64,000 nucleotides of DNA, taken from Moniliella sp. 'wahieum' (lineage: Eukaryota). Within the stretch, counting starts at the first letter, position 1, and each line of letters opens with the position of its first letter. A model generated the notes under the pieces. It did no database searches. It was not told the DNA's origin and worked only from the letters and a program-made list of their open reading frames with translations. The stretch lies in NCBI GenBank assembly GCA_003971905.1, contig RSEE01000062.1, positions 310,001-374,000 of the forward strand, in the 5' to 3' direction. Position numbers and translations under genes: made by a program. Shown piece by piece: positions 4,133 through 46,399 of the stretch.

Positions 4133-5126
4133 TTATTCGTTGAGCAGGTGGGCAATGTCACCGTAGTAGCCCTTGTCTTCGGCGCTCGCTTCGTCCCTTG
4201 TCAAGAGCTGCTCAATCTCTTCGCACTTGAGCCAGGCATACTTGGTCCCCGACTTGCGCACAGCCTCCTTGTCCGCATTACCAGCAATCACGTGGCCGGC
4301 CAAAAAGTAGACCTAGAGCAAAAGAGACACATTAGAATTCCCCATTTCGTCCAAGATGCAAACAACGTACCTTTTCCTCGGCGGTGCTAGTGTGGCCCAC
4401 AGGCAAGTGGTTCAAGAGCCACACGTCAATAGCTTCGCCCAAAGCCTTGGTCACAGCGCGAGGAGCGGCAGCATGAAGGGTATCAGTGGCCAGCGTCACA
4501 TCCACCATGGCATCCTCAGCAGCATCCTCGCTCTTGTCGGGAACCGACTCGGTCTTGGTGGTCAAGTCCACAGTGTCCGAGGGAAACCTCCATGAATTGC
4601 CTGTGGCTTCCGAGTTGACCAGCAGGTACAGCGTCCGGTCGCCCGCACGGTCCAACGACGTCTGGTCGTTTTTCTCGTCGGCCTCGGTACGGCGTGGCAT
4701 CAGAGCATACGAGTCCACCGATGCTCCATCTGTGCCCTCCTCGGATCCCTCGGGGCTGGTGTCCATCACCGACTCGACAGGGTTCGCCGCCGTAGGGCTG
4801 CCGGCCGAACCCGTCTGGGCAGCGGCGCCGTCGGCGGCCGCGGTAGCATCCAAGTCACCGCGGCTGAGAATAGTGGCAAAGTCCACTTTGGTCCGCTCGG
4901 CCTCGGCCTTGAGGTAGGCGAGCTCGGCGGAAGAACCCGGCTTGAAGTAAAACTCCTTGTTGAGTGGCACAGCAAGGTGACGATTGAGTTTCTGGTTGTA
5001 CGTGTACACGGCTTGCTCCAGCTCGGTGGGCTCACGGATCAGGGTGGGCGCACGCGACAGGACCAGTGCACTCCGCACCGCCGTGCTCGCCCTCGCGGAC
5101 GAGGAGAAGGCACGCACAAACCGCAT
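4133..5126 (-). CDS. Mitochondrial large-subunit ribosomal protein mL46 (yeast Mrpl17-like), 2 exons
   Basis: Presequence MRFVRAFSSSAR, then ALVLSRAP, FYFKPGS and PRRTEADEKNDQTSLDRAGDRTLYLLV...WRFP. Intron 4370-4313 (GTACGT...TAG). Exon 2 reads VYFLAGHVIAG...YAWLKCEEIEQLL...HLLNE*. Confidence 0.88.
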
Positions 5127-5876
5127 CGGATCGCTATGTCGGGGCGTTAAGAAGACGAGGCGAGGCAGTGATCTAGCTTCTGAAGGCTCCAGGCGGAACC
5201 CAAACTTCTGAGGCATCGCGGAATTTTTTTCCGCCCATCGGCCGCGCTAATAACACAGGGGGAAATTTCAACAACTGCAGGCCAGCCGCACCCGCCAGAA
5301 CCTCGAAAGCGCTGCCAAATGAACAGGGGCCCTAGGAGAAATCAGCATCCCCTATCCTCTCGCTGTAGTGTCAATGAGACGATGGTGGAGCGCAGCCTGC
5401 ATCTGGGAGCCACAGCCCATCTCCCTGGATCTATCGATTATGGTATGGGCGTGCTCCCTTCAGGGCCTGCTACTTGCACTATCCCATACGGGCTTAAGCC
5501 AAGGCCTGCTGGGACAGACGGTCTAAAAATCGAAAAGCAAGTTAACACCCCAACAGTGAATACTAAGACAACAAAACGCCGAGCACGGTGATAGTGCTGT
5601 GATTTCCTGCCTACGTTGGGTACTTGGAATGATCTCAGGGAGTAAATGCAAATCATAAGTCAAAAAGGTCGGCTCCCCATCAGCTTCAGCGAGCTCTAGA
5701 AAGGGATCGGATGAATATGGACATGGAGCTTGGAGGGGGTTCATGAGTACACAGCGGTAAAAAAAGTTGACGTCCCCGCAACGTTGGTGACGTGGGGACC
5801 AGGGAAAGAAAACTACGAGGGAGTTGTTGGGTGCCTGCAGAATCGACCAGCCCGATTTGAATGACCAAATGCCGTG

Positions 5877-7838
5877 CTAGTTGTAGGCGCCGTCGCGACC
5901 CCAGTCACCTAAGGCTTCCAAAAGAAAAACGGGGGCCACTGGTCGAACTACCCGCTTGGGCCGATGGGGGGCCACTGCCAACAGGCGTCCCAAGCAGATA
6001 AAACGTTGAACCAGTTGCGGTAGCAGGTGCCGTTGTGGCTCCAGTTGCATTGCCAAACACTCCAGACGTCGTAGTAACCGATTAGTCGCAGGACTACCCA
6101 GTGCGGCTGGGCCCTGCTGCTCCGGTTTGACCGCAAGATGAGACGGAGCCGCAGGGGCCGCCGGGGACCCCACCACGACCGGAGACCCAACAAGGCCGGC
6201 TTCCCAAATAGGCCAGGGGCCGTACAGTCAAGGGCGTGGGGGATACTTGCGGAAGTAGGGAACGATCCACCCACTACTGTAGATGGCCCGGGCGACGTGT
6301 AGCATTCACAGACTCGGGGTAGCCGTCCCACCAAAGCCCGAGAAATGATAGTTGCCCCGTGGATCCTGAGGGCTGGGCCAGGACAGGCTACCAAACTGGC
6401 GAACTGAAGGAAGACGACTTGCTGTCCGCGGGTTGCGAGGGCTGGTTGCAAGCAGGTTGACCGGACTGGCCGAGCCCGACGAGAGACGAGTTGCCGCCGC
6501 GGGTCCCGAGGGCTGGGTCGGGACAGGCCTACCGAACTGGCCGGACCCCAAGGAAGACGGCTTACTGTCCGCGGGTTGCGAGGGTTGTGCTGTGACAGGT
6601 TCCGAAGGCTGTGCTGTGGCAGGTTTGCCCGGATGGCTGAACCCGAAGTAAGACGGTTGAGTACCTACGGGTTCCACATAACCTACCCTGGTAGGCGCAC
6701 CAAACATGTTGAGGGTCGGCCCAGCAGCCCAACGCTAAAGGGGCTGGTTTGCTCGTCGCAGTTTCAGAGGCCTGTGCGGAGCAGGACTGCCGTTGCCAAA
6801 GCCGGGTCGGGGAGGAGGCTGGCTGCGCGCTCGAGAGTGGACCGGGGAGATTGTAGCTGCACCTCCGGGGGCAGGGGTGGACACGGATCCGATCGGTGGG
6901 GGCATCGTGGCGTCCGCGCCATGTGAGGTGAGGTGCACCTCGCCGTTTGGAGCAGCAATGCGTTGACATCCCTCTTGTCTTCAGCCGTATCGTCCTTCAC
7001 CACATCGCCTTGATTGTTCTCGGTGAGTTCACGCGGTTCTGGTTCACCGGCTCGATCGGCACAGGGGAAAGGGACGAATCGTTGGACTCTGGGCTTTCAT
7101 GGTCCCCCAACACCACAGGGGACATTGCGGCAGCTGCGCAGCACGGGGCCAACGCTGGGCCCTGCGTCTGAGCCAGGGGGGAGAAACGAGTGCGCGCTCT
7201 GGGGTCGCGCCAGACCGAATGGAGGGGTCGCTGCAACGACTGCAAGAGTGTGGAGGCGGAAGATGTGGGATTGACACAAGCAAAGATAGGATCATCCTCC
7301 TTCAAGTCACAAAGGCGGGCTAGATAAGCAGAATCCGCCACTCGTCCGACTCGGGCTCCGCCTTGGGCTTCAGCGTCGGTTCGGTCCGGGGTGACACGAC
7401 AAGCGTGACGGGCGGGAGGCCCTGCTGGAGGAAGAGTTGCCATTCCAGCTCATTCGATACCAGCTGGTGCATCTCCTGCGACGCATAGAACAACGTCAGG
7501 AATATTCGGGGCCAAACGACCAGGCCGCGCGGATCTTCGACTCGGCCTGGGCCCAGGTGGGCAGGGAATTGAGCGAGCCAAGCACCACTGGGCGTGCGAC
7601 GAGGGGGGAGGAGGAGTCGGTAAAGTGGCTCGGGTGAAGCCGGGAATGTGCATCGCATGAACTGCAGCGGGCATGCGAGTGTGGAGCACGAGCGTGGTGG
7701 CTGGTGCTCCAGCACATAGCTCACTCGAGGACCGGTGGGCGTGGACACGATCTGAGGCGGGCCCCACCGCGGCGCAACATCCACCACTTGGTTTCCGGAC
7801 AACGACAGCGTCGTTTCATACTTCAGGTGTGCCGCCAT
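5877..7838 (-). CDS. Hypothetical Pro/Ser-rich protein (frameshifted), possible PB1-like N-terminus
   Basis: Chain of overlapping minus-strand ORFs from MAAHLKYET (ATG 7838) to the stop at 5877. Segment LPTWAQAESKIRAAWSF...LTLFY...LVSNELEWQLFL resembles a PB1 fold. Internal duplication QPSQPADSK (~6417 and ~6563). Confidence 0.4.
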
Positions 7839-10800
7839 GGTCAACGAGATGGGGAAGAGGGCAACGGCCGTGGCGGTGGGTAGTGGTGGTGGTGGTTGGC
7901 AAACTGGCCTACTAAACACTTGTGGGAGGCGAGCAGGCCGCCTCGCACAGTACTCTCAGTGCTGATAACAAACAGCAGAGCGGACTCTGATTTGGCTACG
8001 CGGGGACTTGAAGCGTGAAGTTGGTCAAACAGTGACTCTAGTGGGTGACATGCATGATGCATGAGCATGATCTGAGTGAGAGGCGCACAGCGGCGACTGG
8101 CCGCTATGGGACGCTGAATTAGTGCAAGTCGGATGTTGGACGCTGGACCCAGCTGCGTAGGACATACCCAGCCAAGCATCTGTTCTTCCCCGCCCCCTCC
8201 CCGCCCAACCAACGCCACCGCCATTAATAGTCGCTGATCAACGATCGCATCGAGGGAAGCCGGAGGGCAGAGGGGAGACAGGCGCACCTAAGCCTGGCCA
8301 AGAGCACTGTCTATCTTTGTTGGAATCGCTGATTCTCGATTACGTGAGTACTATTCGTTCAATATTGAATTGCCAGCAAGGCTTGAAATGTCAATTCTCT
8401 CCTTGGATGCCCTTCCGTTCCGCTCTGCTCGCCTGCCCCGATCCATCATCGAAAGAAGTTGCACCACACAACAGAGCGCGCCCTCTGGAATGAGATGGAG
8501 ATCATGACAAGTGCCAGTCGCCAGGTTCTTTGACGTTCATCAGCGCATCAACGAGGATCGTGGGCTAGAGATCGAAGTAGGAAAACTGGAACGGCACGTG
8601 CATAGTAAGAAGCGGTCTTGGGTGCTTACAGCTTTCGGGATCACCAGAGCCTGCTCTTTTCACAGCGACCTCGAATGCGCAATCGCGCGCGAGGAACTTT
8701 GTGTTGGTTGCGATCGGAACATGCAAGCCCCTGGACGGCCCCATCAAGCAATTGTACGTGTTCTTTGTTACAAACCAGATGAAGTTCGCGTTCGCGCAAC
8801 AATGTTCTCACACCCGATAATGCCCGCACCTGGACAACTGTGTTGTTACTCTGCAGGATGAGCCCGGCTGTAACGTGTCGCATGTAACGTTGGTGTGGTG
8901 TATACACGAGCCGAGCGACGCTACCATTTTTCGCCGCCTTCTGCTCGGAAAGTGCGGCGATTCGGCAGTCGGACTGGTGAGATCTGAGACCTGGTGATGG
9001 TGGTCTAAACCAACAAAAACGCGTATGAAGGGACAACACGCTCCGCTTCACAAGGCGTGTCCTCACACATTGCTGTTGGCTTGCTCATCGCTTCATCGGG
9101 GAGAAGATGGCATCCTCATTGGGTGGGCTGGCCCACATCAAAACAAGGGACCTACTCACGGCGTTTGGATGGGCCGAAGCCCTCTTTGGCGCATTTGGGA
9201 GCAGAACTTGTTGTATACCAGCTAGGAGGCAGAAGAGAGTGCGTATCCGCTCATCCGGGCTCATCGATCATCAATCATCAGCCCGTCTTGTTTCGTGTAA
9301 AAACGTTGTTTCCAGTGTGCTCAAACATCTTCTTTTCGCAGCCTTGATGCGGAGAGGATCATGGCATCTCGTCATGCAGCGGTGGCCAACAGGATGAACG
9401 GGTCGGCTGAGGATATTAGATGCGCGTGCTTGGGATATATGGCGTTTCTGTCTGTAGGATCCAGGAGAGATGGGCCAAAGACACGGTGGGGTATACGATA
9501 ATCCGTCGCCGGGTCACCGGTTACAAGTCCTAGTCACCGTGGGTCGTACTAGCTTGGTCAAGCTTCAAGTTGAACGTTGGCGCGTTGACGACATTGAAGC
9601 TTCGCTAGCTTCAAGCTTCCAGCTTCAAAAATGCATCGATGGCAGTGGCAAATGTCGAGCCAACGCATGAAATACCTCAGTACTGGCAGCAAGCACGCCA
9701 GTAGCCACGAATGCTGAACGCAACTGCCGCACTGCCCTCCAGACGGACTAGTAGGATGTGAGATGTGTGACATGCGTCGTTCGATCGATGGCCAGTGCCA
9801 GTGATCTGGTGCCGGTGATCGCTTGTTCGGTGGAAGGGCCAGTAGCCGGTAGACGGTGCCCCTCTCCCCTGCGAGTAGCTCGTTTAGCAGCTGGAAGTTT
9901 AACGCTTGACGATGGGCAGTGTGCGCAGCAGCGATCGGGGGGTTTCTCAGGCGCTGCGCTACTCCGTGATTCAGCCCAGCGGCTCACCAGAGCACTCGCC
10001 CGCACCGCCCCAGTGCGGGCCAACTGGTAGTTCCACCTGATGCGCTGAGCGCAGCTGAGCCTCAGCGCTGGGCGATGCTGCATCCCTGCTGCAAATCGCG
10101 GAGATGGAGCGACGGCTGCACTGCCCTCACTCTGCCAAGAGCAAGCCGTGCCGGTGGCGGGCGCCCGCCGATCTGACACGCTGGCGGAGGCAGGGCGGCG
10201 GTGTGGGCGCGCTGCCCTTTGGAGCCCCACGAGGCCGGTGGCCAGAGGGGGCAGCGGGCACCGCCCCTGGCAGCGCTGTCTGCGGGGTTCCTCGCAGGCA
10301 GAGGGGCAGCCTTCCACACACGGCCACATGCTGCAAGCTGGGGCGGCGGGGCGGGTGCGCTGAGCCTCGGCGCTGAGGCTGAGGCGCGGACGGGCGCTGG
10401 GTGACTAGTGGGTACCTGCCTGGTGGCCCAAGCTGCGGCTGGCACTGGCCCCAAGCGGTGGTGGGTCGCAGCGGCGTCACCGGTCAGTGCGCTGAGGCTG
10501 GGCGTCACACGGGGCATGCCTGCGGGGGCGCTGCAGGGAGGAGAGAGAAGCATGGCCGATGATGCAGATGCATGATGCGCTCAATGCTTCCCATGAGCTG
10601 GATAGTCGACAGGCATGCATGCATGCACCCCCCGCTGCAGGGAGGCGCAGCCGCCGCACTCGGCCAGTGGGACTCAGCACGGGTACTCAGTACGCAGCAG
10701 CACGCAGCGGCTCAACGTTAGCCCCCCCAGCCTGCCTGCACTTTGCTCGCCCGCACGTTTGCCCGGCGGGGCGCAGGCAGCCGCCGCAGCCTTGCATTGC

Positions 10801-10866: not shown

Positions 10867-13800
10867 ATGGCGTCCTCGGGCGCATACCCGCTCTCCATCC
10901 TGGGGCGCCTGCCCCCCCGCCCCGCCACCACCTCCCTCGGCGCCCATGTCGCAGCACACGTTACCGACAGCGCCGCATCACCCACCCTCCTCGACTGTCT
11001 CTGCACCAGCCCACGCCCCCTCTGGTCCCCCGACCTCCACCGCCCCCTCTCGACCACAACATGCTCCGTTCTCTCATCTCCGCCTTCCGTCTTCCCGTCT
11101 CCTCTCGCGCCCGTCCCCTGCAACGCAACGACCGCGTCATGGTTGCCCTGCCCACGGGCCCCGAAAATGCAGTGGCCCTCATGGCCATCTCCGCCTACTA
11201 TACCGCCGCTCCCGTCAATGCCGCCTGCACGTCCGAGGAGCTGCGGGAAGATGCTCGTCGTCTCCGCGCCCGCGCCATCGTCACCACCCGCGACGCCATT
11301 GAGCGCCTCGACCTTGGTCCTGCTATGCCCGCGATGGGCTCGAGATCATTTTTGTCGACATGCGCTCACCGGCCGGCCGGTCTCTTTGACCTGGCCGTGC
11401 TCGACGGCGACGACATCTGTGCCCACCTTCGACGCGCAATCAGCCTCGACCACGTCCCAATGAGCTCCAAGACACGGCCCTTGTCCTTCACACGTCAGGA
11501 ACGTCGGGCACCAAAAAGGTCGTCCCCTACACCTGCGCCACCTGATCGTTGGCACTTGCTGTGTTGTGGACTCGTGGCAGCTCAAACCCGAATCGGTCAT
11601 AGTATGTTCATCATCATGGTGACGTTCCTTTTGGTGTACATTGTCCGCTGACCTTCCTTTGCTCCAGTGAACATGATGCCCCTATTCCACTGGGTGGCAT
11701 TATCCGCAATCTGTGGGCCCCCCTCTTTTCGTGCGGCAGTGCCATCATGTGTGCCGGCTTTGATGCCACCACATGGTGGACGTTGGTACGCAACCTCGGC
11801 GCGACTTGGTACTATGCCGCCAACAATGCACCAAGCCATCCTTGCTTCCAAGCCGGATGAGATCAATGTCGCGCGTGACATTAAGATCAAGATGATTTGC
11901 AACGCTGCTGGTGGTCTTCTCCCTACGCTCGCGATGCAGATGCGTGACACGTTTCGTTGGCGCCATCCTTCCCTCGTATGGGATGACCGAGTGTATGCCC
12001 ATCGCTTCCCCGCCCGTTACCTACCCTGGAGCGTCCTGGGTGCTCCGGTATAGCCTGCGGTCCGGACTTGTCCATTCGGGACCCTCGCACATTGGAGAAC
12101 CAGTACCCGTTGGTGTTGATGGCGCGATTTGTGTCCGAGGTCTGCCAACGTTGACGGATACGAAGTGGCGCCCGGGAAGCTGGACACATCTTGCTTTACC
12201 CGTGCTGGTTGGTTCGACTCGGGCGATGTAGGCCACATGGACGCCGACGGTTTCCTTTACGTGACGTCGAGGTCAAAAGAAATCATCAACAAGGGTGGTG
12301 AGGTCATCTCCCCCTTTGAGATCGAGGAGGCCATCACGGCCAATGTACGCGAACGTGTCAAGGCAACTCTTGCTTTTTCGATCGATCATCAAGTTCTGCA
12401 AGAGACAATTGGTGTGGTGGTAGTGCCCCAGCCCAACCAACCAAGGATTGGGTTGATGGAGCTACAGAATACGCTGCGCAATGTACTGCACCCCTCGAAG
12501 TGGCCGTTCGCTATTGTCTACATGGACGAACTGCCCAAGAACCAGGCCGGAAAACCACTTCGCATCAAGCTCGGCCAACGCCTTGGTATCCAGCCTCTCG
12601 CTGACGACACTCCTCTGCTGGATCGCCACTTTGAAGCCAGGCGCCTGACAAAAATGCCCCGCTCAGCACTCCCATCCCGTGCCGCAAGGTGCGGATAGAC
12701 CTGAGCTCGATCGAGCGGGCCTGCGCTCGCATCCCTGGGGTACAAGAGGTGGCCGTGCAGATGCGGCCGGACGGAGCACCGGAAGCCTTCCTCCACATTG
12801 ACGAAGATGCCGAGTACGATGCTGCTGATATTGATGGCGCCTTGGCTGGGGTACTGGATGGATACATTGTCCCCAACCCATTGCACGTCTTCCGTCAACG
12901 CCTTGCCCGAACTCGCGATGGCCGTTTCGACTTTGCCACGATGAACGAAGAGGTGCGGGCGCAAAACGCAGGGACATGTCCTACTCTACGCAGGTCGTGA
13001 GGGACTGTGTTGCCAAGCTTCTCAACATGGATTCAGGTGCGATTACCGCCGACTCGGACTTCTTCCTTTTGGGCGGAAACTCGCTCCTCCTGGGTCGTCT
13101 GATCCATGCTATCAAGAAAGAGACGGGAGCGAGCTTGGATGGCGTCCGTATTTACCAATTCAACCATTGTCGGCATCGCTGGCCTGGTTGACGAACAACT
13201 GGGATCAGACGATGACGATGAATACATGGCAAGCGGGTATTCCGACGAGAAAAATGGCTTCATTCGCTCCCCCGCCCCGGGTTACGAGCAGGATGGGGAC
13301 ATTCCAGATTACCTGCATTCGCACGGGTACCAGCCCCGTAGTCAAACCCATCCCTGGGTGCTTTTTGTCCAGATCCTTCCTCTTATCTTTATGTACCCTC
13401 TTAAGGCTGCCTGGACATGGACGGTGATCTTGCAAGGCCTTGCCTTTTCCGCCTACTACATTTCGGACAACTTTTGGGAACGGGTGGGCGTCTTGCTTGC
13501 CTTCCTTGTTGCTGCGTCTCACTTCGCGGATCATCTGCCCCATTGCGGCTATCCTGTTCAAATGGGTTGTGATCGGTCGCTATCGTCCGGGCAAGTACCC
13601 CATGTGGTGCAATTACCACCTGCGTTGGTGGATCGTGAACCAGTCACTAGCCATGTCGGGCAAGGGTTATTCAATCTTACACCCTCGCTCCGCATTGCAT
13701 ACTACCGCCTCCTTGGTGCACGCATTGGAACCAACGTCAAGATTGACAAGTTTGCCAAGTTGGCGGAGTACGACTTGCTCACAATCCACGATGGCGCGCG

Positions 13801-15678
13801 AATCGATCGTAGTGTGGTCCGCGGATTTGCTGTGGAGCGGGATGGTTACTTCCGTCTTGAACCGGTGGTGATTGGACGGCACACCATTGTCAATACGTTT
13901 ACCCAAATTGCCCCGGGTGCCTACTTGCCCGATGGCACGGTCTGGGGTCCTCAGGCATCCTCGCACGAGGAGCCTTCGGCAGATGGGTTTGCCGCGTACA
14001 ATAAGGGTGAAGTGCCCCAGCCCAACATCTTCCTCATCGTGTTTCTGGGTCTTCCGATCAAATATGGGATCATGTTCTTATGCTACATCCCTTGGTTTGC
14101 TGCGCTCTTTATGCTGCTGTCGCAGCCGTTCTTGTTCAACCGGACCGATTCCGTCAAAGGTGTCGTTGCATGGTTTGCGTACCCACAACGTATTGGTTGG
14201 CACTTTGTCGCGCGCATCGTGCGGAACTGTATGCCTCCTCTCTCCAACATGATCCTTGGTATCCTTGTCAAGCGTCTCTTCCTCGGGCGAAACAAGGAAG
14301 GGTCTATGCGCAATGCGAGTCAATGGGCTCTGTTCCGCAGATGGATGTGCTCCGAACTTCTTTCCCAACCCCAGCTCCGGCGCGGATTCGCCATCATTGG
14401 CACCCACTATGAAATGACCTCGGTCATCTACCGTGCGATGGGGGCCCAAGTGGGCCGCAGGGTCTACTGGCCTGGCTCGGGCGTGTACTGCCCTGACCCA
14501 GAGTTGCTTCGTGTAGGGGACGATGTGGTGTTTGGCTCGCGCTCCGAGCTGTTTACGTCCGACTCGATTGGCTTCAACCGTATCTCCATCGCATCGGGGG
14601 CGATGATTGCAGACCGCGTGACGCTCTTGCCTGGCACAACAGTGGATCGTCAAGCGGTCATGGGCTCTGGTGCGCTGTCGCGCCGGAACGGGTACTATGA
14701 GCCGTTATCGGTCTGGATGGGGGCCAAGCACGGTGAGCCAGTCAGCTTTGGCAAATCCGCCCCGACCGAGAGCACAGTGACGCCGTTTGGTCGGGCGTTT
14801 TACCAACGCAAGGCGCCCTACTTTGTTTTCCTTACCCCCTCATCGTTTTGGTCAATGTGTTTATGGCCGCTGCCAGTTCAGTCTACTGGGCTGCACCCGC
14901 CCCGATTGCCGTCGTGATTCTCAACCGCGCGCGGCTGAACTATGAGCACAAGGCTCCCGGCCTGTTTGGCGACCACTGGTACCGTCCGGCATTGGTGTAT
15001 GTGTACATTGCGCTTGCATTCATTGTCATCATGACGACGCTAGCGTTGTTGGCCTTTGCTTGGGTCATCGTGACCAAATGGATCGTCATTGGTCGTCGGC
15101 GCGAGGGGCGGTACGACTGGGACATGTCGTCGTACTGCCAGCGCTGGCAACTGCACCTCTCGCTGCAACGGTTACTCGGGCGCGGATTTGGCGGGCGGAT
15201 CGTGGGCTGCATTTCGGGCAGTTGGTATGCCGTTCTCTACCTCCGTCTGCTCGGTGCGACAATCGGGAAAGATTGTGCGATCTGGGCGGGGGGGAAACCG
15301 AGTTTGCAACTGACCGAACCCGAGTTGGTTACGATGGGCAACAAGGTCAGCTTGGACGATGCTTCAGTGGTGGCCCACATCAACTCGCGCGGGAGGTTTA
15401 GCCTCAACCGTCTCACCATTGGGGACGGCTGTGCGTTGCGAACAGGCTCCCGGCTCCTATCGGGCGCGAGCATGGAACCGCACTCGATGCTCTACGAACA
15501 CACGCTCGTTGCGTCGGGCGAGATTGCCGAGGCGGGCTGCGTCTATGCTGGTTGGCCCGCCAGGCAAATGCGTTTCCGCCGTTCCAGCACCGGTCTTACC
15601 CCGGGCAAGACGACGCCGCAACAGCGCGAATCGGACTACAACCTAGCCCAACCCATGGGCAAAAGTTCTGGTTCCTAG
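10867..15678 (+). CDS. Membrane-bound NRPS-like enzyme: acyl/oxalate-CoA-ligase-type A domain, carrier (T) domain and Pls/PosA-type terminal domain (TM segments plus three hexapeptide/LbH blocks)
   Basis: A motifs: LVLHTSGTSGTKKVVPY (~11480), MPLFHxGGI, PSYGMTE, WFDSGDVG, RSKEIINKGGE, LPKNQAGKPLR. T motif DFFLLGGNSLL (Ser codon 13081). Three blocks YYRLLGARIG, IYRAMGAQVG and YLRLLGATIG, each preceded by hydrophobic helices. Intron 11602-11667 (GTATGT...GCTGAC...CAG). Confidence 0.88.
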
Positions 15679-18383: not shown

Positions 18384-19936
18384 GTTCGCCTTGGGCGGCG
18401 ATAGCCGGCAGAGCAAGTCCACTGATCGCGGCAACGTAGAGAAGAGCAGTAGTAAAGAGTGCATGTGTCCAGAAAAGGATTGTTGGTGGGTGAGCAGGGG
18501 AATAAGAGGGGGCTGAGAAAGGAGGGGAGGGGGCAGGAGGTGGTGGTGGAAACGGAAGTGGAGAGGTGTGTGGAGGGAGATGGTAGCAGGTATTTCCCGC
18601 TCGTCTCGCGGCGACGGATCGGAGGGGAGGCGGCTAGTCCCAGGTGATGGCCGTGGCCAGAAGGGTACGAGGTGAGCCACTGTGAGCCGATTGGGTCGGA
18701 GGGGCAGGGGGAAGTGTGGGGTGTTGGGGGCATGCGTGCAGCAGAAGGAAAGCCCGCTTATTAGCGCTTACGGAGTAGGGCGGTCGAGTGGTGGGCCGCC
18801 GCGTGTGCTGACAAGCGGCCAGGCCCCTGGGCGGTGTCCCAGCTGGCCAGTCCCGAGCACTGCCCCCGTTGTGGCCTTTCGCCGGGGAACGGCGATCAGG
18901 AACATCATGCATCATGCCACACTGGGCCTGGGCGAGGGCGGGTGTTGGTATAGGGGTTACTGGTTAGCTGCGTCGCGCGTCAAACGCTTCGCCCCGTCTC
19001 CTCCGTTTTAGCCAAGCCATGTGGGTGTTCCATATGGACATGGATGGCCGTGGGCCTTTGGACAGCACCGGTTACTGGCAGGTTGCCCGGCTGTCTGGAC
19101 AGTCTGAGCTTGTCTTTGGGCGCACTCAGGCGTACCCATGCAGGCGCGCGGCATGCATGGGTAAACCGGTAACCGACGGTAATGCATCTCATGCATTCTG
19201 TCAACCTGAAGCTTGGAGAGCTGTACTAAAACAGGGTCCCACCTGCCCATTCTGGCATTGCCAGTCTGCTCCGTGTGATTTGGACGATGGCTATAGCTGG
19301 CAATACATAGTAGTTAGCACCGGAGTTGAAGCAACATGTTATGAAGAGAGGAACAGAAATTGAAGTAGGAACTCTCCACACCCCCGTGAGAGCCATTTCG
19401 CCTGGCTAGACCGCCCAGCTTGCACATCAACATAGTATTCATCCGGATAGGCAACGCCGGGGGTACCAGCTGTTCAGTTGAATTACAAGGACCTGCATGA
19501 GGTTGGTATGGTTGGGTAGGTAGGAGAGGCACGCACTGACATCTCGCGACACATCATCCTTATCGTTCACAATGCGTTTGTGTAGATTGAATGGGATACA
19601 CTTCTTACGTAGCAGCCAAGAAACCCCATCCTCTTTTTGCGGCAGCCGCTGCACGTGGATGAGAATCAGGATGGATATGATTACAACGAGAGCAGAATAC
19701 ACACTGCCCGTAATGACCCAAGTAGAGTGCCACAGGCTTTTTTCTTTGCCTACAGGAATCACTTTGGGTGGTAGGCAAATGACCCTGCGGCCCATGCACT
19801 CGCAGGGGAGCGCACAGTCCGTTGAAGTGGTCGACACATGCGTGGTGGGAATGCAAAGAGATGGTTCCGATGCAGCGGGAGAGACCAGGATGCAAGAAGA
19901 TGGTCAGGGAGTACGTAGCAGAACACACAGGCGCAA

Positions 19937-20596
19937 TTAAGCCCCACGACCACCACGGAAGCCACCGCGACCACCACCCCGGCCACCAAATCCCCCCCAC
20001 GTCCACCGCGAGGCGCACCAAACCCACCCGACCGCCGCCGCGGCTAGCAAAGCCACCACGGCCACCACCACGGCCGGCCAAAGCCACCACGGCCCCGGGA
20101 GAGCCACGACCACCTCCAAACCCGCCACTTGGGCGCCGACTTCTTCTTGGGTGCCTTGGGTGCCTTGGGCTTCGGAAGGACCGCTCAATAGGCAGCAGTC
20201 GGTCTCCGCCAATGTAGACCTTGTCATCGGCCTTGAAGGAGGAGGCACCATACCAGCGTCCATCTTGACAGTGAAGAACACCTCGTTGATCGGACCTAGA
20301 TCTCGTCCACCTTGCCAATGGGACTTGTTTTGCAAGCTGTGGGGGCAGAAGGGTCAGATTCCAGATGACCTGGAAAAAGTGATTAGGATAAAAACGTAAT
20401 CGATCGGCGCATTGAAGTATGGGACATGCTTGGGTCCGTGGAGGCGAACGCATCTCACCTTCCCCGGCATGGACAAAGCTGCCATCTTTGACCGTCTCGG
20501 GCCGGCATTAAAGGGGCGAGCGCCACCGCGACCACCACGGAATCCACCGCGACCACCGCGATCACCAAAACCACCACGACCACCACGGAAGGACAT
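19937..20596 (-). CDS. GAR1: H/ACA snoRNP subunit Gar1
   Basis: RGG-rich ends (MSFRGGRGGF..., ...GGFRGGRGA*) flank VPYFNAPI, PIGKVDEI, GPINEVFFTVK and KVYIGGDRLLPIER. Intron at ~20400-20337 with a garbled donor. Confidence 0.93.
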
Positions 20597-21854: not shown

Positions 21855-22693
21855 TGTGCTGGGCCACGTGTGGAGATGGTCGGCGAGAACGTGGAGAGAA
21901 CATGTCCTCGGGTGGATCTGCACGCATTTCCTAGCGGAATTGGATTAAGCGGAATTTGCACGCCAAAGGCTCTTGACTTCATCAGACTTTTGCCCTTTCC
22001 AATTTCACTACACTGCGCCAACCAGCCCACCCTTTGGGGTTAGATCCGCCCTGGCCCGACCCGATTTACTTCTTCATTTGAGGGAGGCACCTAGCCGTTG
22101 TAGGCACATGGTCATGCGGCTAGCAGCTCTCTTAGGAGAACGCTTTCAACCGCAAGACAGTCAGCGTGACTAGTAACCGGGGTGACCTCGTAATGGCCGT
22201 GGCAAGTCTTCTCGAGCAGGAAGGTAATGCGAGAGGGACACATGTTGAACGTTGACTGCGTCTCAGATCAGCCACGCTAGGCCCCGAGCACGCATGGAAA
22301 TCCTCGCGCACGGAGCAGGCCAGGGATGCTCCGAGTGACCAGGGGGATTATTAGTACTTTTGTACTATTAGTGCTAGTATCCGTATGCTCAATGCCTTAG
22401 TAAGCGAAGCGTGCGAAGCCCCTGGGTGGCCTCGTCGCGTCATATTCTTATTCACAGAGCGATGGATGTGTGGAGCAGAGCGCAGCCACAGCGCCAGTCT
22501 TTGCTCCACTCGAGCTGCACGGGCCCACCAGGATGCATGGCAGGCATCACAGCAGAGCATGCGTCGGCGGCCACTGCAAGGGGGCCGGGCGGGCCGGGCA
22601 GATCCGGACGTCGCCTCTTCTTGTGGGGGGCATTCTACTCTCACCTTCTACCCACCACCATCACTTCCACCACACTCTCCCCGCTTCCGCATC

Positions 22694-23651
22694 ATGGCGC
22701 CTCCCCCGCAAAAAGGCTTCTCTTCCAATGTCGCCGTTGGCGCGGCCATGAACATGTTTGAGGTTACCACTTTGGGCCAGCCGTTCGAGGTCATCAAGAC
22801 CCAGATGGCCTCGAACCGGTCCCAGTCAATGGCGCAAGCACTCAAAACGGTTTGGTCGCGTGGTGGCGTGTTTGGATTCTATCAGGGCCTCATACCTTGG
22901 GCCTGGATCGAGGCATCGACAAAAGGTGCGGTGCTCATTTGGACCTCGTCCGGCATTGATTCGGCCGCCCGATCGGCCGGCTTGGCCCCTGCTTGGGCCG
23001 GGCTCCTGGGCGGTATGGGCGGCGGAGTGGCGCAGGCGTATGCCACTATGGGATTCTGCACCACCATGAAGACAGCTGAGATTACGAGGCACAAGAAAGC
23101 GGCCGCAGGGGCACCTTCTGCCTCCACCTGGGCTCTCTTTGGTGACATTTATCGCCGTGAAGGTATCAGGGGCATCAACAAAGGGGTAAATGCGGTTGCT
23201 TTTCGTCAGATGACTAACTGGGGAAGCCGCATGGGCTTTGCGCGCCTCGCCGAGGCCCCCGTGCGTAGCATCAGCGGCAAGTCTGAGTCGGAGAAGTTGT
23301 CCGCGGCGGAGCGGATCGTCTGCTCATCCCTCGGTGGCGCCCTGGCGACGTGGAACCAACCCATCGAAGTCATTCGCGTCGAGATGCAGTCCATGGCGAA
23401 GGATGCCAACCGCCCGTTAAGATGACCATCGCCAGCACGGCCAAGTACATTTATAGCAACAATGGTCTCCTAGGTTTGTACAGGGGTGTAACCCCTCGTA
23501 TCTGCCTGGGCATTTGGCAAACCGTACGTGTGATTCTACTTTCGAGACGACAAACAAGATCTAATCTTTTCTTTTGTCTCAGATTTGCATGGTCACCTTA
23601 GCGGACTATGTCAAAGAATTCGTTGCAGGGACGGGCAAAAAAGCAGAGTGA
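22694..23651 (+). CDS. YHM2: Mitochondrial carrier, citrate/oxoglutarate carrier Yhm2-like
   Basis: [82 protein letters not shown]. Intron 23524-23582, then [12 protein letters not shown]...KAE*. Confidence 0.93.
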
Positions 23652-27775: not shown

Positions 27776-29531
27776 ATGCGCACGATTCTCACTGCATCTA
27801 CCGCCGCCCTGGCTGGCGCCGTGAATGTCCTCGCCGGAAAAAGCGGCACTGGATTCACTGCTACGTCTGTCTCGCTCTCCTCTGCCGTGGGCGGAGGCCC
27901 CGCCGGAGCCATTGGGAACGGTGTGAATGCCCAAGGCTGGTCTTGGGGCATCAACAGTTCCGGTGGGGGCGGGGGCAATTCGTCCAAGCGCGGCGATCAA
28001 CCTGCGGAAAGCTGGCTGGCCAGCCACATCAACCTGTACAACAACAAATCTCTCCAACCCGGACAATGTGATCCTAACCAACGACCCGGCTGGCTCGGGT
28101 CAAGTGCTGTCGGTCAAGTATGGGGCAAATCGTACGGCTTGCATACCACCCCCTCCGGCGGCACTTCGTTTTATTCTCAGCCCTTTTGGGTTCGGGAAAC
28201 TCTCGCTCGGTCTCCAACCCGTTCGTCTCTGCCACCCATTCCTCTTCGGATGGCAACTCCGCTTCGCGCCAGGAACTGGTACTAGCCTATTCAGTCTTCT
28301 TCCCAAACGATTTCGACTTCGTAAAGGGTGGAAAGCTCCCGGGTCTTTACTCTTCGGTCGCTAGCGGAAGCGGAGGCACCCTCAGTGCTGATACGTCTGG
28401 TTGTGAGGGGGGATCAGAAGGTGGTGTCGGAACTTCCTGCTGGTCTACTCGTATCATGTGGCGCACCAATGGCGAAGCTGAGATTTACGCCTACATTCCC
28501 ACCTCCCTCCAAGGTACCAACTACAAGCTCTGCCCAGCGGACTCAACCACATCGCAGGGATCCAAGCTAATCTGCGACTCCGATTATGGCACCTCCATTG
28601 GTCGTGGGGCCTTTACCTTCCAAAAGGGCAAGTGGAACGATTTGGCTTTGCATGTCAAGCTCAACTCCGATGGAAAGGCCGACGGCATGGTCCAACTGTT
28701 TTGGAATGGCGCCTCCACCCCAAACATCCATTTGAACAACATTGCCTTCCGTGGCTCCAGTGGTGGCTCCAGTGGTTCGAGCTCAGGATCCAGCTCGGGA
28801 AGTGGATCGTCTAACTCGCGCCGTTCCCTTCGGAGGTCCAACGGTCTGGGCCGTCGCGGCTCTTCGTCTGGCAACTGGGTTGACAAGATTATGTTCACCA
28901 CCTTCTTTGGTGGGTCGGGTTCGGAATGGGCCACCCCCAATGCGGTGCAGACCTACTACAAAAACGTCGCCTTGTTTGCTGGCTCGGGATCGAGTTCCAC
29001 TAGCTCAATGGCACTTCATCTGGATCGGCCTCTTCCATGCGCCTTCCTCTGCGTCCTCTCATGCTTCCCATGCTTCCTCGGCGGCCACCACAGCCAGTAC
29101 GGCGTTGCCAGTGCATCGGCTTCATCCGCCGCCCCCAAGCCTTCATCCCAGGATGGACAGGGTCCCTCTTCTGGTTCGGGTTTGGGCCCCAATTCAGGAT
29201 CGGGATGCTCGGACGACTCTTCTGGCTCGGACACGGGATCATCGGAAAGTGCTGGTTCTGACACCGGTTCTGACTCGGGATCTTGCTCAGCAGACTCTGG
29301 CTCAGAGTCCAGCTCGGGTTCAGGATCGGGCTCAGAATCGGACTCAGGATCGGAGTCGGGTTCGGGTTCGGGTTCGGGTTCGGGTCACAGCGCCGGCGCT
29401 CTACTCGTGCCGAACGTGATGCAGCGGTCCAAGCCCGCACCCAAGGCCACCTCGATTTCCCATTCGGAAAGCGTATGCACCACCACCGGTCTCGGAAGTC
29501 CATGCATGCTCGCAATGGGATGTGGATCTAA
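27776..29531 (+). CDS. Secreted polysaccharide lyase family 14 (alginate/glucuronan lyase-like) with Ser/Gly-rich tail
   Basis: Signal peptide MRTILTASTAALAGAVNVLA. PL14 motifs YSVFFPNDFDFVKGGKLPGLY, CWSTRIMWRTNGEAEIYAY, YGTSIGRGAFTF, GKADG and MFTTFFGG...WATP. The C-terminus is uncertain (29531 or 29607). Confidence 0.88.
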
Positions 29532-30211
29532 AAGCGGGCTCAATCCCCCCTCCCCCCTGTGCACCCGTTGGTCAAGGTCGTCTGTTGTTGCGTGCCCCCT
29601 TTTTTGATGACAGACCCACTGGTTGGGCTCATCTTTCTCTCCCCTTCCCTATATATGTCTTCTCTGTCTTTCCGTGGATTCATCAATTCATCCTCTCCGA
29701 CGGGTTCGGAGTAGCTGCCACACATTACGGAAATCTGCGGTAGTCGATCTTCGATGGCGTGCATATATATCTTCATTAATCATTGATGCATCACACACTC
29801 GAGCTTAGCTGTGAACGTGTATAACCTTCTATGAATGAGACTGGCTGGGTAATCTCCATGTGCGCAACGTACCACCTCTTTGTGAGCTCTGTGACAACAT
29901 GTCTTCGAACGTGTCAGTCGGCAAGGGCTCTCCATGTTTTGGTCATGATCCTACTCTTATTTCTTCTCCTTTCTTTCGTGGTCGAGAGCAATAGCCTACA
30001 ACAGAGAAAATTGAGCGTCGGTGAATAAGACATAGCATAGCAAAAGGCTCCAGGACATGATGGTAGAAAAATTATATTAAGCGCGCGCTGATGCGCTGAT
30101 GAGCAGTGACAAAAGTGAGAAAAAACTGAATAACCGTATTGTTGTAACCCGTAACCGACATAACCCCATCAACCAAAAACCCGATGGTTTGGGGATTTAG
30201 GAGAGTGGAAA

Positions 30212-33200
30212 TCATGGGGAATCCAGACGGCCCGCATTGATACCCTGCAGCGATGCCAAGGTGCGGAACATGCCATCCCGACGGGCAAGAAGTTGCGCAG
30301 GTGGGCCAAACTCCATCACCTTCCCTTCGTCGAGGACGAGCACCACGTCGTAGTCGACAATGTCCTCGATGCGGTGAGCAATGGTAAACACCGTTTTGCC
30401 ACTGTTGGCATGCGCGTGAAGCAAACGCTGGATTTGCATGTCACTCTCGCGGTCCAAACTCGACGTCACCTCGTCGAGTACGACAATCGGCTTGTCCCCC
30501 AGAAGAGCGCGCGTGACAGCCAGGATCTGGGACTGGCCCCGGCTAAAGCCAGCCTCCTCCATAGGCGTCGCCAACTTATTTTCCAGCTTGGACACCTTCT
30601 CCTCCAGTCCCGTCTCCTTCAGAGCCCACATGGCCTCGTCTCCGCTCGCCTCTTTCGCGTCATTGTCATGGTCGGGATTGAGATCGGCACCACCCAGCAA
30701 CAAGTTGTCCCGCACCGTCAGGCCGTCCACCAAGAAGGGCTCCTGCACCACCACCGTCATCATGTGCCGCAGCCCCTCGAGGGACATGGAACGAACATCA
30801 ACGCCGTCAATGGAGATGCTGCCCGCCGAAATCTCCTGCATCCGCAAAAGACCAGCCAGCAGCGTGCTCTTGCCCGACCCACTGCGGCCACAGATGCCCA
30901 GACGCACCCCGGCGGGTACCGTGAAGGTAACGTCATGCAACACCTCACGGCCGTCATCATACGCAAGACCAACGTGCGAAAAAGCGATTTCGGCGCCCGC
31001 GCGGTGCACGGAGCTCTCAACCACATCAGCCTTGGACGAGGCGCCATTGCTGGCAGGGTCCTCCTCCACGGGTTTGACCCCGGCCTGACGCGCAGCAGCG
31101 GCAGCGACGGTGAACTCGGATGCGGTTTGGGCAAACTCTTGGAGCCGTTCAAAAACGATGGCAACAATCTCCACCTCCATCAGACTGGCCACTGCAAAGC
31201 GATTTCTCCGGAAAGTGAAACAGTCTGGGTAAGGGCCACACCAAGCATGTTGACGCTGTGAGAGTGCCGCCGCCCAATGACGACGAGGACGAGGGTGACA
31301 TTCATGAGCATCGCTGCGATTTGAAGCCAGGTTTGGAGCCACTGTTGGGCGGAGAACAGGGAGTAGGTCGCCTTTTGTAGGTTGGTAGCGTACTTGGTGT
31401 TCATCCCTCGCAATGGTTCCACCGCCCCAAAAGCTCGAATCACCGCCAATCCCGAGGTGCAGTCGCCAAAGAGGGTGTAAAGAGGGGAGCGAGAAGCCAT
31501 CTCCAAACGCCGCATTTGCCGCGAATTCGGAAGATACATCCAACGAATCAAGGTCGCAATCGCCACTGCTGCAACAAAGGTGATGGCCGTATAGGGTGCT
31601 GTGACAATCATGAGGATGCAGCTTCCCAACAGGCTGATGGCAAGAAGAAGGAATGCAAACAGGGCCATAATCCACTCCATGTCAACCATAAAGAGATCAC
31701 CCGAGTGTCGAGCAACCACTTGCCCTGAAGAGCGGGCGTTAAAGAAAGACATGGGCGCAGCCAGAACGGCGCGGAGGATGCGCTCATGGATGGTCCAGCC
31801 GGCCGGGATCGTCGTATGGACAAAAGTAAACTGGATGCACATCGCCGACAAGATGAAAAGGCTTGCCCATAGTGCCAAGTAACCACCCATCATAGGTCCA
31901 TAGGTGCCAGGTGCAAGCGCGTCCCGCCGATCCGTCCAGTGCTGGATGTAGATTTGGTAGGCAAGGTTCGACATGGAAGCGAAAATGAGAAGGATCACCA
32001 TAACAGCTACTCGCCAAGGCCCAGCTGCCGTGACCCAGAACCAATAAGACGAGAAGCCGACCCGGTTCTCAAATACTTCATCCATCTTGTTTTGGTCTTC
32101 GTCGTCATCCACCACCTCTTGGTCCATTTCAATGTCCTCGAGAATATCAAGACGGTCCATATGGACCTTACCTTGCGCTTCCCCTCCAAGACCAATTTGC
32201 ATGTCGTCCTCGAGCAGCTGCCTGCGGCGCCCCTCTGCCACAGTCTGGACAATTCCGGGAGCGGCGCTAGCGGTCAAGGCGGCAGGAGTATCTGTGTCCG
32301 CTGCGTCTTGCTGGGCCAGGTCGTGAGCGAGAGCAGCAGAAGCTGCTTCTTTGGGGGTGCGTAGCAGGGCCTTCCCCCCGGCAGAATGTGAACGACACGG
32401 TCAGCATCTTTGAGACGGAAGACAGCGTTGGAGGCGAGGAGTACACGACGGCCCTGGAGCAGCCCGCTCGGGCCAAACAAATGTGTCCAAATGTGCGCCT
32501 CAGTCTTTGCATCGACGGCACTGAGCGGATCGTCAAGGATAAACATGGATGCCTGCCGGGCATACACCGCGCGGGCCAGGTTGATGCGTTGCTTCTGCCC
32601 TCCACTCAGACTCTTGGCCAAACGCTGGTCTCCAAGTTCAAATTGGCCAGGTCGGGTTTGAGGGCACATGCCTCGACAACTTGGTCATACCACACTGGAT
32701 CGTACCCGAGTGGGTTGTAGAATACGATGTTAGCACGGATGGTCATGGTCTCTTGCGTCCAGTAGTCTTGTGGCGCATACCCCACCAGCTCGGTCCCTGA
32801 GATTGGTCGAGGTAGATGCTCGGTATGGCCACTCAAGATGCGCGTCTCGCCCAAGAAGGCGTTGAGGAGCGTCGACTTGCCCGCTGAGAGGCGACCGACG
32901 ACCATCGTCAACCCTGGGGCGAGGGCGAGGGAAACATCAGACAGGACCGTCTCCTCCTTCCAACCAATGCTTGCGTTCACCAAGCGCGGCTCGTTAGGGG
33001 AATCCGACACATGGAGCGAGGCCAGAGGTGATAGGGAGGCCTTCACATCTGTTGGTGGCAAGGTCAGACTCGGAGCCATATTAGGGGTTTTGGGTAGCTC
33101 CTCCAAGGGGATGGCTTCCGATCCCGATTGGTCCCACAAGCTCGAGTCATTCCTTTCAGTCCCCAACTTGCCATCCTTGTCCAGACTCGAGGATTGGAGA

Positions 33201-35069: not shown

Positions 35070-35111
35070 AGCCTGGACGTAGGTTAGGGAGCAGGCAGAC
35101 GGGAGAGGAGG

Positions 35112-35222
35112 CGATGGGGGTGGGGATGGGGATGGGGATGGAGATGGAGATGGAGATGGAGATGGGGATGGAGATGGAGATGGCGATGGCGATGGCGATG
35201 GCGATGGCGACGGCGGATGGCG
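35112..35222. repeat. (GATGGN)n hexanucleotide microsatellite upstream of the ABC transporter ATG
   Basis: Run of GATGGG, GATGGA and GATGGC units, roughly 15 copies. Confidence 0.9.
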
Positions 35223-36048
35223 GAGGCAATATACAGGGAGAGGATGACGCGGCTGCTGTGTGGGTGATGGCTGGAAGGAGCGGGTGCTAGGAGGCTGAAA
35301 AGATAACCACGTTGGTATGGTGAGTGTGCCGGCCGGCTCGCAGTGCGCACAGCTGTGCCTCGCAGTTTGGTTGGCATTAATTGATTAATCGGGATTGGGT
35401 GGCCCCGGTGCGTGCTACTGAGTAGCAAATAGTGCTACTGAGTAGCAACTAGGAAGTCGCAACTAGGAACTCTCAGATCTCACAAACAACTATCGACGAT
35501 TTCGATCATTCGATTGTCGGTTATCGAATACCGATTTTGCCTTATGGCCGTCTGACGAAACAGCTGGCCAGCCCGCACGCCGGGTGCACAGGGGGGAAGA
35601 CCACGTTGTGGGGACGCCTCGTCGGCAACGCTCGCGCGCAGCGCCGAAAGCATGTCACATGTGATGCGGAAAGTCACACAGACCGCGCTGCGCTACACGA
35701 GCTGTACGAGGCTGTACTACGCTGGGCACTGCTGTACTGCTTCGGAACATGCTTCATTGAACAACGCGTCGGAAGAGGCTAGTGATTCCAATGACTAGTG
35801 ACTAGTGACTAGTGACAGTACTAGTGGCTAGTGACTTGCTGTGGTCGACCAAAAAAACCGCGGCCTCCGACAGCAGGCCCCAGCCTGAGGCCTGAGGATG
35901 CTACCGGCGGTCAGCCCGCCATCGCCCTACTCTTGGCTGTGAGTGCTCAGGCTCCTCAAGGCCGCAGGCCCGGTGACCGGTTACTTACCCCGGACCGATC
36001 TGTCGATCAAACGATGGTGGCATCCTGTTCGTGAAAATTGAAAAAAAA

Positions 36049-45470: not shown

Positions 45471-45639
45471 AAACCAACAAGTCAAAGTGGCACAGTCATG
45501 AAAAAGAGAAAAAGGACCAAATTCAGGACAGAAAAAGGATGACGACTGGTTCAACCGCCACGCGGACCAGCGTCAACGATGGTTCGAAAGTACCTTGTAG
45601 GTGATCAGTACACTTCGCAAGCAGCACCGCTGGCAAAGG

Positions 45640-46310: not shown

Positions 46311-46399
46311 AACCCCCATCATGTTGGGTGCAATGGGAGAGCGGGACGTTAAAGCAGAGCACACAAGAGGACCAACGAGTCCGCACATTACCTCCCTAG

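Follow-up and report, generated by a model that had tools for sequence, protein, structure and literature searches.

A Moniliella gene assigned to the Aureobasidium polymalate synthetase family, with a predicted Pls/PosA-type terminal domain

A single gene on the forward strand, at positions 10867 to 15678 of a 64,000-nucleotide stretch of the basidiomycete Moniliella sp. 'wahieum' (contig RSEE01000062.1, positions 310,001 to 374,000, assembly GCA_003971905.1; the whole stretch is referred to below as the window), is assigned by sequence comparison to the family of the Aureobasidium polymalate synthetase (PMAS), an NRPS-like (non-ribosomal peptide synthetase-like) enzyme. The predicted protein, of about 1580 residues when read through 18 frame breaks and one intron, would activate L-malate, load it on its own thiolation (T) domain and polymerize it at the membrane; this reading, in which the product is deduced from homology, is given a rough probability of 0.62. 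The gene is an ordinary member of a widespread family, and the kind of enzyme it encodes has already been characterized genetically in Aureobasidium.

Assignment to the polymalate synthetase family

With the longest frame of the locus (604 residues) as query, 502 longer proteins were found at E ≤ 1e-3 (best E 1e-275), and among the matches listed the best named ones belong to Violaceomyces, Thecaphora, Tilletia, Parajaminaea and Ceraceosorus (1564-1597 residues, 60-63% identity), with Malassezia and many Agaricomycetes following them. The organism is smut-like, its window gene falling in a 12-row Ustilaginomycotina-type clade (SH-aLRT 100). A search with the Hortaea member of the family finds proteins of 1688-1690 residues in Aureobasidium pullulans, A. 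melanogenum and A. subglaciale, and their length is close to that expected from the 5049 bp reported for the PMAS gene (PMC9210645), which supports the identification of these proteins as PMAS. In reviews, the PMAS of A. melanogenum and A. pullulans (QHD40385.1, MN551082; Wang et al., 2020, via PMC11905612, PMC11286673, PMC9210645 and PMC9909216) is described as an NRPS-like protein that combines adenylation (A), T and 'C-like' domains with six transmembrane regions and lacks a thioesterase (PMC11905612, PMC11286673, PMC9210645).

The connection to the genetically studied gene is provided by four primers published for the knock-out of PMAs (PMC9909216, supplement Table S2). Across 38 loci, these primers fall within the gene at locus L002, with 1, 0, 0 and 1 mismatches and in the expected order and strands, while at the corresponding sites of the other Aureobasidium locus, L001, they carry 2, 5, 4 and 3 mismatches, and ten shuffles per primer, used as a control, gave 4-10 mismatches. 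The gene deleted as PMAs is therefore the Aureobasidium member of the family to which the window gene belongs. The product of L002 is 99.8% identical to the A. pullulans protein P0371, and PMAS in the comparisons below denotes L002/P0371, identified through the knock-out primers and not through the sequence of QHD40385.1; that accession is not among the cluster members listed (15 of 126 and 15 of 52), and both it and g3625 are absent from the supplement of PMC11905612.

Reading through the window gene, with X at the breaks, gives 42.3% identity to PMAS across 1453 columns (A domain 47%, an extra domain described below 31%, T domain 34%, terminal domain 42%), and the alignments begin near residue 100-120 of PMAS. 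Separate trees were built for the A domain (32 rows) and for the terminal domain (21 rows), as proposed in the initial annotation of this DNA, and in both the window protein and PMAS share a 19-row clade with SH-aLRT 100, apart from 11 oxalate-signature ligases and 2 Pls proteins. These trees are quick and midpoint-rooted, with long Pls branches, and they show family membership rather than strict orthology; one-to-one orthology with the Aureobasidium gene has no more than moderate support from the sequences. What the initial annotation had named as a similar A-T-membrane layout in Aureobasidium thus extends beyond layout to membership of the same family.

Domain organization

The A domain, the T domain with its GGNSL motif and the three units of hydrophobic helices plus a hexapeptide block, all proposed in the initial annotation, are located where it had placed them. 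Profile scans (Pfam, NCBIfam) were run on ten frame pieces of the locus, and the three profiles suggested for this purpose were all matched: AMP-binding as fragments in two pieces, below cut-off (E 5e-5 and 1e-3), PP-binding (PF00550) in one piece, above cut-off (E 2.5e-11), and TIGR02353, which models the Pls/PosA terminal domain, in three of the ten (E 2e-18, 2e-10 and 1e-17; 40-66 bits). AMP-binding_C and Hexapep were each found in two pieces. Condensation, thioesterase and reductase families are not among the profile matches of the ten pieces, which agrees with the proposal that the protein lacks such domains.

The A domain, of acyl-CoA-ligase type by Pfam, PDB matches and motifs, spans positions 10867-12570 on the plus strand, on which all features of the gene lie. 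It carries the P-loop HTSGTSG at 11489, MPLFHxGGIIRNL at 11676 (where MPLFH runs into a frame break and is followed by GG), CNAAGG at 11898, SYGMTECMP at 11974, DSGD at 12216 and the catalytic lysine within AGKPLR at 12546. Between the A and T domains lies a second Asub-like (AMP-binding_C) domain at 12710-12922 (Pfam E 1.6e-4, below cut-off), which is conserved in the family and is 62% identical to that of the homologue P0007, compared with the 31% given above for PMAS. The T, or carrier, domain (DFFLLGGNSLL, 12991-13161, PF00550) has GGNSL at 13072 and the pantetheine-bearing serine at 13081-13083; this serine is present in all 234 non-redundant rows of the family alignment, to which a redundancy filter reduced 369 full-length proteins and which are biased towards three queries.

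The terminal domain consists of three units. In the first (13340-13990), hydrophobic helices at 13355-13412 and 13484-13575 are followed by a left-handed beta-helix from near YRLLGARIG at 13703. The second (14000-14790) has a hydrophobic helix at 14021-14123, a second long helix, a conserved THYE at 14402 and a beta-helix from YRAMGAQVG at 14429, and the third (14800-15582) has hydrophobic helices at 14819-14920 and 14977-15094, SYCQRW at 15130, a beta-helix starting with LRLLGATIG at 15241 and a conserved AHINSRG at 15373. A Kyte-Doolittle scan finds five hydrophobic segments in the window protein and three in the terminal domain of PMAS, for which reviews give six. The second Asub-like domain, the 18 frame breaks and a 66-nucleotide intron, the latter two described below, are features beyond those noticed in the initial annotation.

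Proposed mechanism

As its motifs suggest, the T-domain serine would receive phosphopantetheine from a 4'-phosphopantetheinyl transferase (PPTase). The A domain would then convert ATP and L-malate to malyl-AMP through the beta-carboxyl, where adenylation is predicted from the motifs and the substrate from identity with the PMAS pocket; the family-invariant arginine of GGIxRN may hold the other carboxylate of malate. The malyl group would be handed to the arm of the T domain rather than to CoA. The membrane-anchored terminal domain, modelled as a single-chain pseudo-trimer of left-handed beta-helices resembling the trimeric O-acyltransferases, would move the acyl group from the thioester to a 2-hydroxyl, either of malate or of the chain being extended, in the way Pls acts on amines. 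Since there is no thioesterase, chain length would be set in the terminal domain, and the resulting poly(beta-L-malate) would be kept at the membrane or shed.

Terminal domain and nature of the acceptor

The terminal domain of the intact Tilletia-type orthologue in L006 (767 residues, 92-row alignment) was modelled with a predicted local distance difference test score (pLDDT) of 92.7 and a predicted template modelling score (pTM) of 0.91, and it shows three repeats, each made of two long helices, short helices and a beta-helix. This model matches the description of the published PosA model, in which three helix pairs and three left-handed beta-helices are packed as one domain (PMC10522769). 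A single-sequence fold of window positions 13103-14914, with out-of-frame stretches included, reached a pLDDT of 35 and was not used. The closest PDB folds are hexapeptide O-acyltransferases, such as the maltose and serine acetyltransferases (Foldseek best E 3e-4), with Z of 12-15 for single units (at most 14.6 over about 100-150 residues), each match covering about 100-160 residues. A solved Pls-like terminal domain was found neither by sequence (best E 0.007, to hexapeptide proteins) nor among the fold matches, which does not exclude that one exists, and the ESM Atlas gave unnamed Hexapep clusters only. From the modelled fold, the membrane helices of PMAS would be placed in the C-terminal Pls-type domain, unlike in the wording of the reviews.

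Of the terminal Pls/PosA architecture claimed in the initial annotation, the three-unit fold and the TIGR02353 homology stand, while membership does not, as eight of eight intact homologues, at 169-206 bits, stay below the curated TIGR02353 cut-off of 423.1. Only patches of the terminal domain (22-33% identity, top four rows each) align between the window and two plasmid-borne proteins annotated as Pls/PosA. By these comparisons the window protein is a distant homologue of Pls/PosA and not a member by the curated cut-off. The terminal domain has 47 polar residues whose conservation reaches at least 85% of the rows, and the window protein and PMAS agree at 44 of them; both have His1165 and His1499 (P0007 numbering). 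Because hexapeptide acyltransferases commonly use a histidine as base, these two residues are catalytic candidates, not assignments.

It has also to be considered that malate is activated as in PMAS and that malyl or short oligomalyl groups are mainly moved onto a surface acceptor, such as a wall glucan, an exopolysaccharide, a polyol or a lipid, with free polymalate being an overflow trait of Aureobasidium. The nearest folds are indeed those of sugar and small-molecule O-acetyltransferases, and the WcaF/HpsU polysaccharide acetyltransferase models match the beta-helices weakly. Fungal polymalate has been described as embedded in the membrane and probably bound covalently to polysaccharides (PMC9210645), deletion of PMAs altered the molecular weight and titre of pullulan (PMC9909216), and retention of the family in Malassezia and Erysiphe points to a routine role. 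This transfer to a surface acceptor is nevertheless considered unlikely: the homologous terminal domain of Pls/PosA yields free homopolymers (PMC10522769), no glycosyltransferase was recognized in the neighbouring frames scanned, which hold housekeeping and transport families, and the conserved polar residues of the terminal domain are nearly all those of PMAS.

Adenylation pocket and substrate

The preferred reading, polymerization of L-malate, depends in turn on the A domain, whose nearest solved relatives are the oxalyl-CoA synthetases 6qjz (E 4e-49), 5ie0 and 8aff, followed by malonyl-CoA synthetases. In AtAAE3, the oxalate pocket is reported to comprise Val215-His216, Cys288-Ser289, Ala313-Met314, His319 and Lys500, of which Ser289 and His319 are oxalate-specific (PMC8905533). 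When these positions are mapped by sequence alignment to AtAAE3, not on a ligand-bound structure, His216, Ser289 and His319 correspond to Gly, Ala and Pro in the family, including the window protein and PMAS. Right after the PLFH motif, an arginine is found in 231 and an asparagine in 213 of the 234 rows. At 21 scored pocket and catalytic positions, the window protein equals PMAS at 20, the last falling on a frame break, and 19 of the 21 hold one residue in at least 203 of the 234 rows. The simplest inference from sequence is that the family has one conserved substrate, of which the sole reported one is L-malate.

The initial annotation had described the A4 motif as that of a Pcs60-like acyl or oxalate ligase lacking the residue that binds alpha-amino groups. 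The carboxylic-acid-ligase type is borne out by the solved neighbours, while oxalate specificity is unlikely because its determinants are replaced; the absence of the amino-binding Asp holds throughout the family, as this A4 position is V, I or A in 230 of the 234 rows and two annotated Pls proteins carry the Asp (FDFS, FDFA). Two candidate substrates were accordingly rejected, oxalate on account of the Ala, Pro and Gly found in place of Ser289, His319 and His216, and a diamino acid on account of the missing A4 Asp.

A polyester synthetase for another small hydroxy-acid (e.g. citramalate, 2-hydroxyglutarate, tartrate or glycolate), or an enzyme using oxalate, would be compatible with solved neighbours that handle oxalate and then malonate, and with a pocket that was placed by alignment, yet it appears improbable. 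The window pocket is equal to that of PMAS, the oxalate-type signature sits instead in bacterial ligases (MPLFHIHG in 15 of 16), the oxalate-specific residues are replaced as described, and oxalate is without a hydroxyl through which it could be polymerized.

Integrity of the gene

The gene of this putative malate polymerase begins with an ATG at 10867 and closes with a TAG whose last base is 15678, with its coding sequence spread over many frames. Three intact full-length homologues cover the locus colinearly in tblastn, from 10876-10885 to 15582-15615, intact Ustilaginomycotina proteins colinear with it have 1585-1597 residues, and positions 10867-15678 are one gene. When the locus was aligned, with frameshifts allowed for, to a profile built from 23 close homologues, 1559 codons were placed, of which 1067 are identical to P0007 and none is a stop. 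Of the 18 breaks in this alignment, 11 are best read as the loss of one base and 6 as the loss of two, the latter being equivalent for the frame to a single extra base, and 1 lies at the intron. This GT-AG intron of 66 nucleotides was read directly at 11602-11667, with a branch-like site (GCTGAC) at 11647-11652, and in the frameshift-aware alignment its region appears as a 63-nucleotide insertion plus a 5-nucleotide step.

Of 158 columns with a conservation of at least 95% in the family, the gene keeps 155, and one of its three changes is a Gly-to-Ser in motif A8; at the same columns, the family rows have a median of one mismatch, and 62 of 234 have three or more. A short-read run (X1) gave three short contigs at the gene (about 600 bases, 6 of 30 bins covered), which differ from the window by four substitutions, all at synonymous third positions, and one of which spans a break and carries the frame-restoring base. 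Three neighbouring genes, read from profile coordinates, also shift frame without space for an intron (at about 23419 in a mitochondrial carrier, 32650 in an ATP-binding cassette (ABC) transporter and 43055 in a PTR2 transporter). Relatives in nine other contigs (L001, L002, L006-L008, L011-L014) are single open frames of 1563-1701 codons. It is by far likelier that the breaks are assembly errors and that the gene is intact in the organism, because there are no stops, the conserved columns are kept, the reads contain a restoring base and the neighbours are broken alike. A pseudogene in this strain, or two genes encoding a CoA ligase and a membrane acyltransferase, would account for 18 frame breaks and for a Gly-to-Ser change in motif A8, and is very improbable in view of the stop-free reading, the intact columns, the reads that restore the one break they cover, the equally broken neighbours and the uninterrupted frames of the relatives.

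Weighing of the evidence

A true Pls/PosA-type poly(diamino acid) synthetase, to which the TIGR02353 homology and the shared three-unit terminal fold might point, is hardly credible, as the A4 Asp of the two annotated Pls proteins is replaced by V or I, Pls A domains give no BLAST match to the window among the top rows and lie far outside its clade in the tree, and all eight intact homologues score well below the TIGR02353 cut-off of 423.

Several points weigh against the reading of the window gene as an intact polymalate synthetase. At the level of the gene, the near-invariant glycine of motif A8 is a serine at 12267, 39 residues from the nearest break; read support exists at only 1 of the 18 breaks, X1 covering none of the other 17; and enrichment of homopolymers at the breaks was not found (10 of 18, against a background of 48%). 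At the level of the family, the ascomycete and basidiomycete clades are sisters at 86 in the A-domain tree and are unresolved in the other trees, and the primers are described as an A. melanogenum design yet fit the pullulans-type locus L002 better than L001, which leaves unchanged which gene is hit. As to function, that of PMAS is taken here from reviews and one knock-out paper, one of these reviews describes the enzyme as not having been purified (PMC9210645), and the acceptor is not fixed by an identity of 42%. In the sources used, reports of polymalate come chiefly from Aureobasidium, Physarum and Penicillium cyclopium, and with so few producers in a pan-fungal family many members may do something else. 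In the literature searched, which excluded most subscription journals, we found no assayed or otherwise characterized basidiomycete member, consistent with what the initial annotation had stated, no basidiomycete polymalate synthetase announced in titles or the starts of abstracts, and no publication linking PMAS to Pls.

Range of the family and implications

More distant matches of the family lie in Pezizomycotina, chytrids and Mucoromycota. When an intronless member from a peat contig was used as query, homologues were found from Novosphingobium, Kitasatospora, Acidimicrobiales, Myxococcota, Guillardia and Cylindrotheca, and further family matches come from a diplonemid and from a metagenome-assembled genome (MAG) of Planctomycetota. 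Both MPLFHVGGIVRNL and CNAAG are present in 8 of 14 loci examined. Six peat metagenome contigs with a GC content of 67-69% (L016, L018, L019, L020, L022 and L028) carry intronless, bacterial-type members with a PMAS-type pocket, each followed at most about 600 bases downstream by a PPTase gene; in L018, for example, the family member lies at 4651-9300 and the PPTase gene at 9189-10070, and the frames flanking this region are presumably transposase- and integrase-like. Judged by sequence, these peat members are candidate bacterial polymalate synthetases. The Planctomycetota MAG has a full-length member (L039, 4744-9519) with a slightly altered pocket (MPLFHAGGIYRNV, ANAAGS). Names of Physarum or other amoebozoans were not among the named matches of the family searches, although many matches are unnamed and this does not amount to absence.

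Two side observations concern domain fusions. In a Solibacteraceae MAG (L061, 6944-9640), an oxalate-signature ligase (MPLFHIHG, TEAAHQ) is fused to a carrier-domain motif in a frame of 898 codons. Many Agaricomycetes homologues (P0059, P0062, P0065 and others) have RING-finger Pfam matches (PF00097, PF13639, PF13920) in the same chain.

A broader proposal, to which we give somewhat less than even odds, is that PMAS belongs to an ancient family of Pls-type membrane acyltransferases that load malate and whose pocket is near-invariant, a family spread across Dikarya, chytrids, Mucoromycota, cryptophytes, diatoms and diplonemids as well as scattered bacteria, in which a PPTase of its own lies beside it. 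If this were true, many fungi, including Malassezia, mushrooms and smuts, would make unnoticed polymalate or a surface polymer that is malylated and binds Ca2+, the part of PMAS called 'C-like domain' would in fact be a pseudo-trimer of the beta-helix acyltransferase kind with His1165 and His1499 as catalytic candidates, and there would be a sequence handle for the Physarum enzyme. The comparison ties fungal polymalate synthesis to the Pls/PosA polymerase fold and predicts polymalate or malylation in basidiomycetes, and the bacterial homologues, intronless and accompanied by a PPTase of their own, may lend themselves to purification more readily than PMAS. Polymalate is described as a biodegradable polymer for carrying drugs, with no established physiological role in fungi (PMC9210645).

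Genomic neighbourhood

Upstream of the gene, six matches to GNGGCKCA, the Crz1 site named for the PMAS promoter, lie at 9979-10775 in the upstream kilobase, where 1.37 are expected; this number was reached in 4 of 1000 shuffles and makes the region the top tile of the window. The other two of the three patterns tested there were not enriched (CAGCCAC 0), and GNGGCKCA has no match in the upstream kilobases of five relatives. Control of the window gene by Ca2+/Crz1 is no more than hinted at by sequence. In the same GC-rich upstream region, at 10040-10517, repeated GCTGAGCCTC/GCGCTGAGGCTG elements occur in direct and inverted orientation, and they overlap two of the Crz1-like matches.

A biosynthetic cluster was considered and rejected, the recognized neighbours being MRP-L46, a Kre9/KNH-like protein, a mitochondrial carrier, a histone deacetylase, a polysaccharide lyase 14, an ABC transporter and PTR2. 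None of the 543 window frames outside the gene has a tblastn match in loci L001-L038 that would indicate synteny. A DNA search with positions 13670-14827 found no similar stretch. The mitochondrial carrier gene (22355-23598, plus strand), 7 kb downstream of the PMAS-family gene, presumably resembles the Yhm2 citrate/oxoglutarate carrier, and it is conceivable that it supplies malate. Further along are the polysaccharide lyase 14 gene with a Ser/Gly-rich tail (28078-29607, plus strand), a full ABC transporter with TMD0 (30212-35384, minus strand) and the PTR2 transporter (41800-43280, plus strand), the latter two frameshifted. Frames near 19000-20500 have no Pfam match, and a fibrillarin-like name for them is unsupported. 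Low-complexity repetitive frames with imperfect tandem units lie on the minus strand at 45500-48600.

Comparison with known systems

The closest known system is PMAS, with which the window gene has in common the A-T-membrane layout without a thioesterase. The window protein differs in being about 100 residues shorter at the N-terminus, in having one intron and in belonging to a basidiomycete clade. Reviews give PMAS N-terminal membrane helices and a C-like domain, whereas the helices of the window protein belong to a Pls-type beta-helix domain at the C-terminus, and its profile matches include no condensation family.

The A domain is like that of the oxalyl-CoA synthetases AtAAE3 (5IE0), LsOCS (6QJZ) and the yeast oxalate-CoA ligase (8AFF), which we take to be Pcs60, in its PLFH motif, P-loop and catalytic lysine. 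These are stand-alone CoA ligases of about 520-540 residues, whereas the A domain of the window protein is fused to carrier and terminal domains, and the window family has a new invariant Arg and Asn.

With Pls/PosA (TIGR02353; PMC10522769), the window protein shares the A-T-terminal order, the three helix pairs and three beta-helices and the lack of condensation, thioesterase and reductase domains, and by analogy the polymerization of a single monomer in Pls/PosA may serve as a model for its mechanism. It differs in an A domain of another ANL class without the amino-binding Asp, in the extra Asub-like domain and in the bond predicted, which would be an ester as opposed to the isopeptide bonds of Pls/PosA. 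The left-handed beta-helix is also that of the hexapeptide O-acyltransferases (maltose and galactoside O-acetyltransferases, CysE, xenobiotic acetyltransferases), which are soluble homotrimers using acyl-CoA, whereas the window enzyme is predicted to be a pseudo-trimer formed by one chain and anchored in the membrane, which presumably receives its acyl groups from its own T domain.

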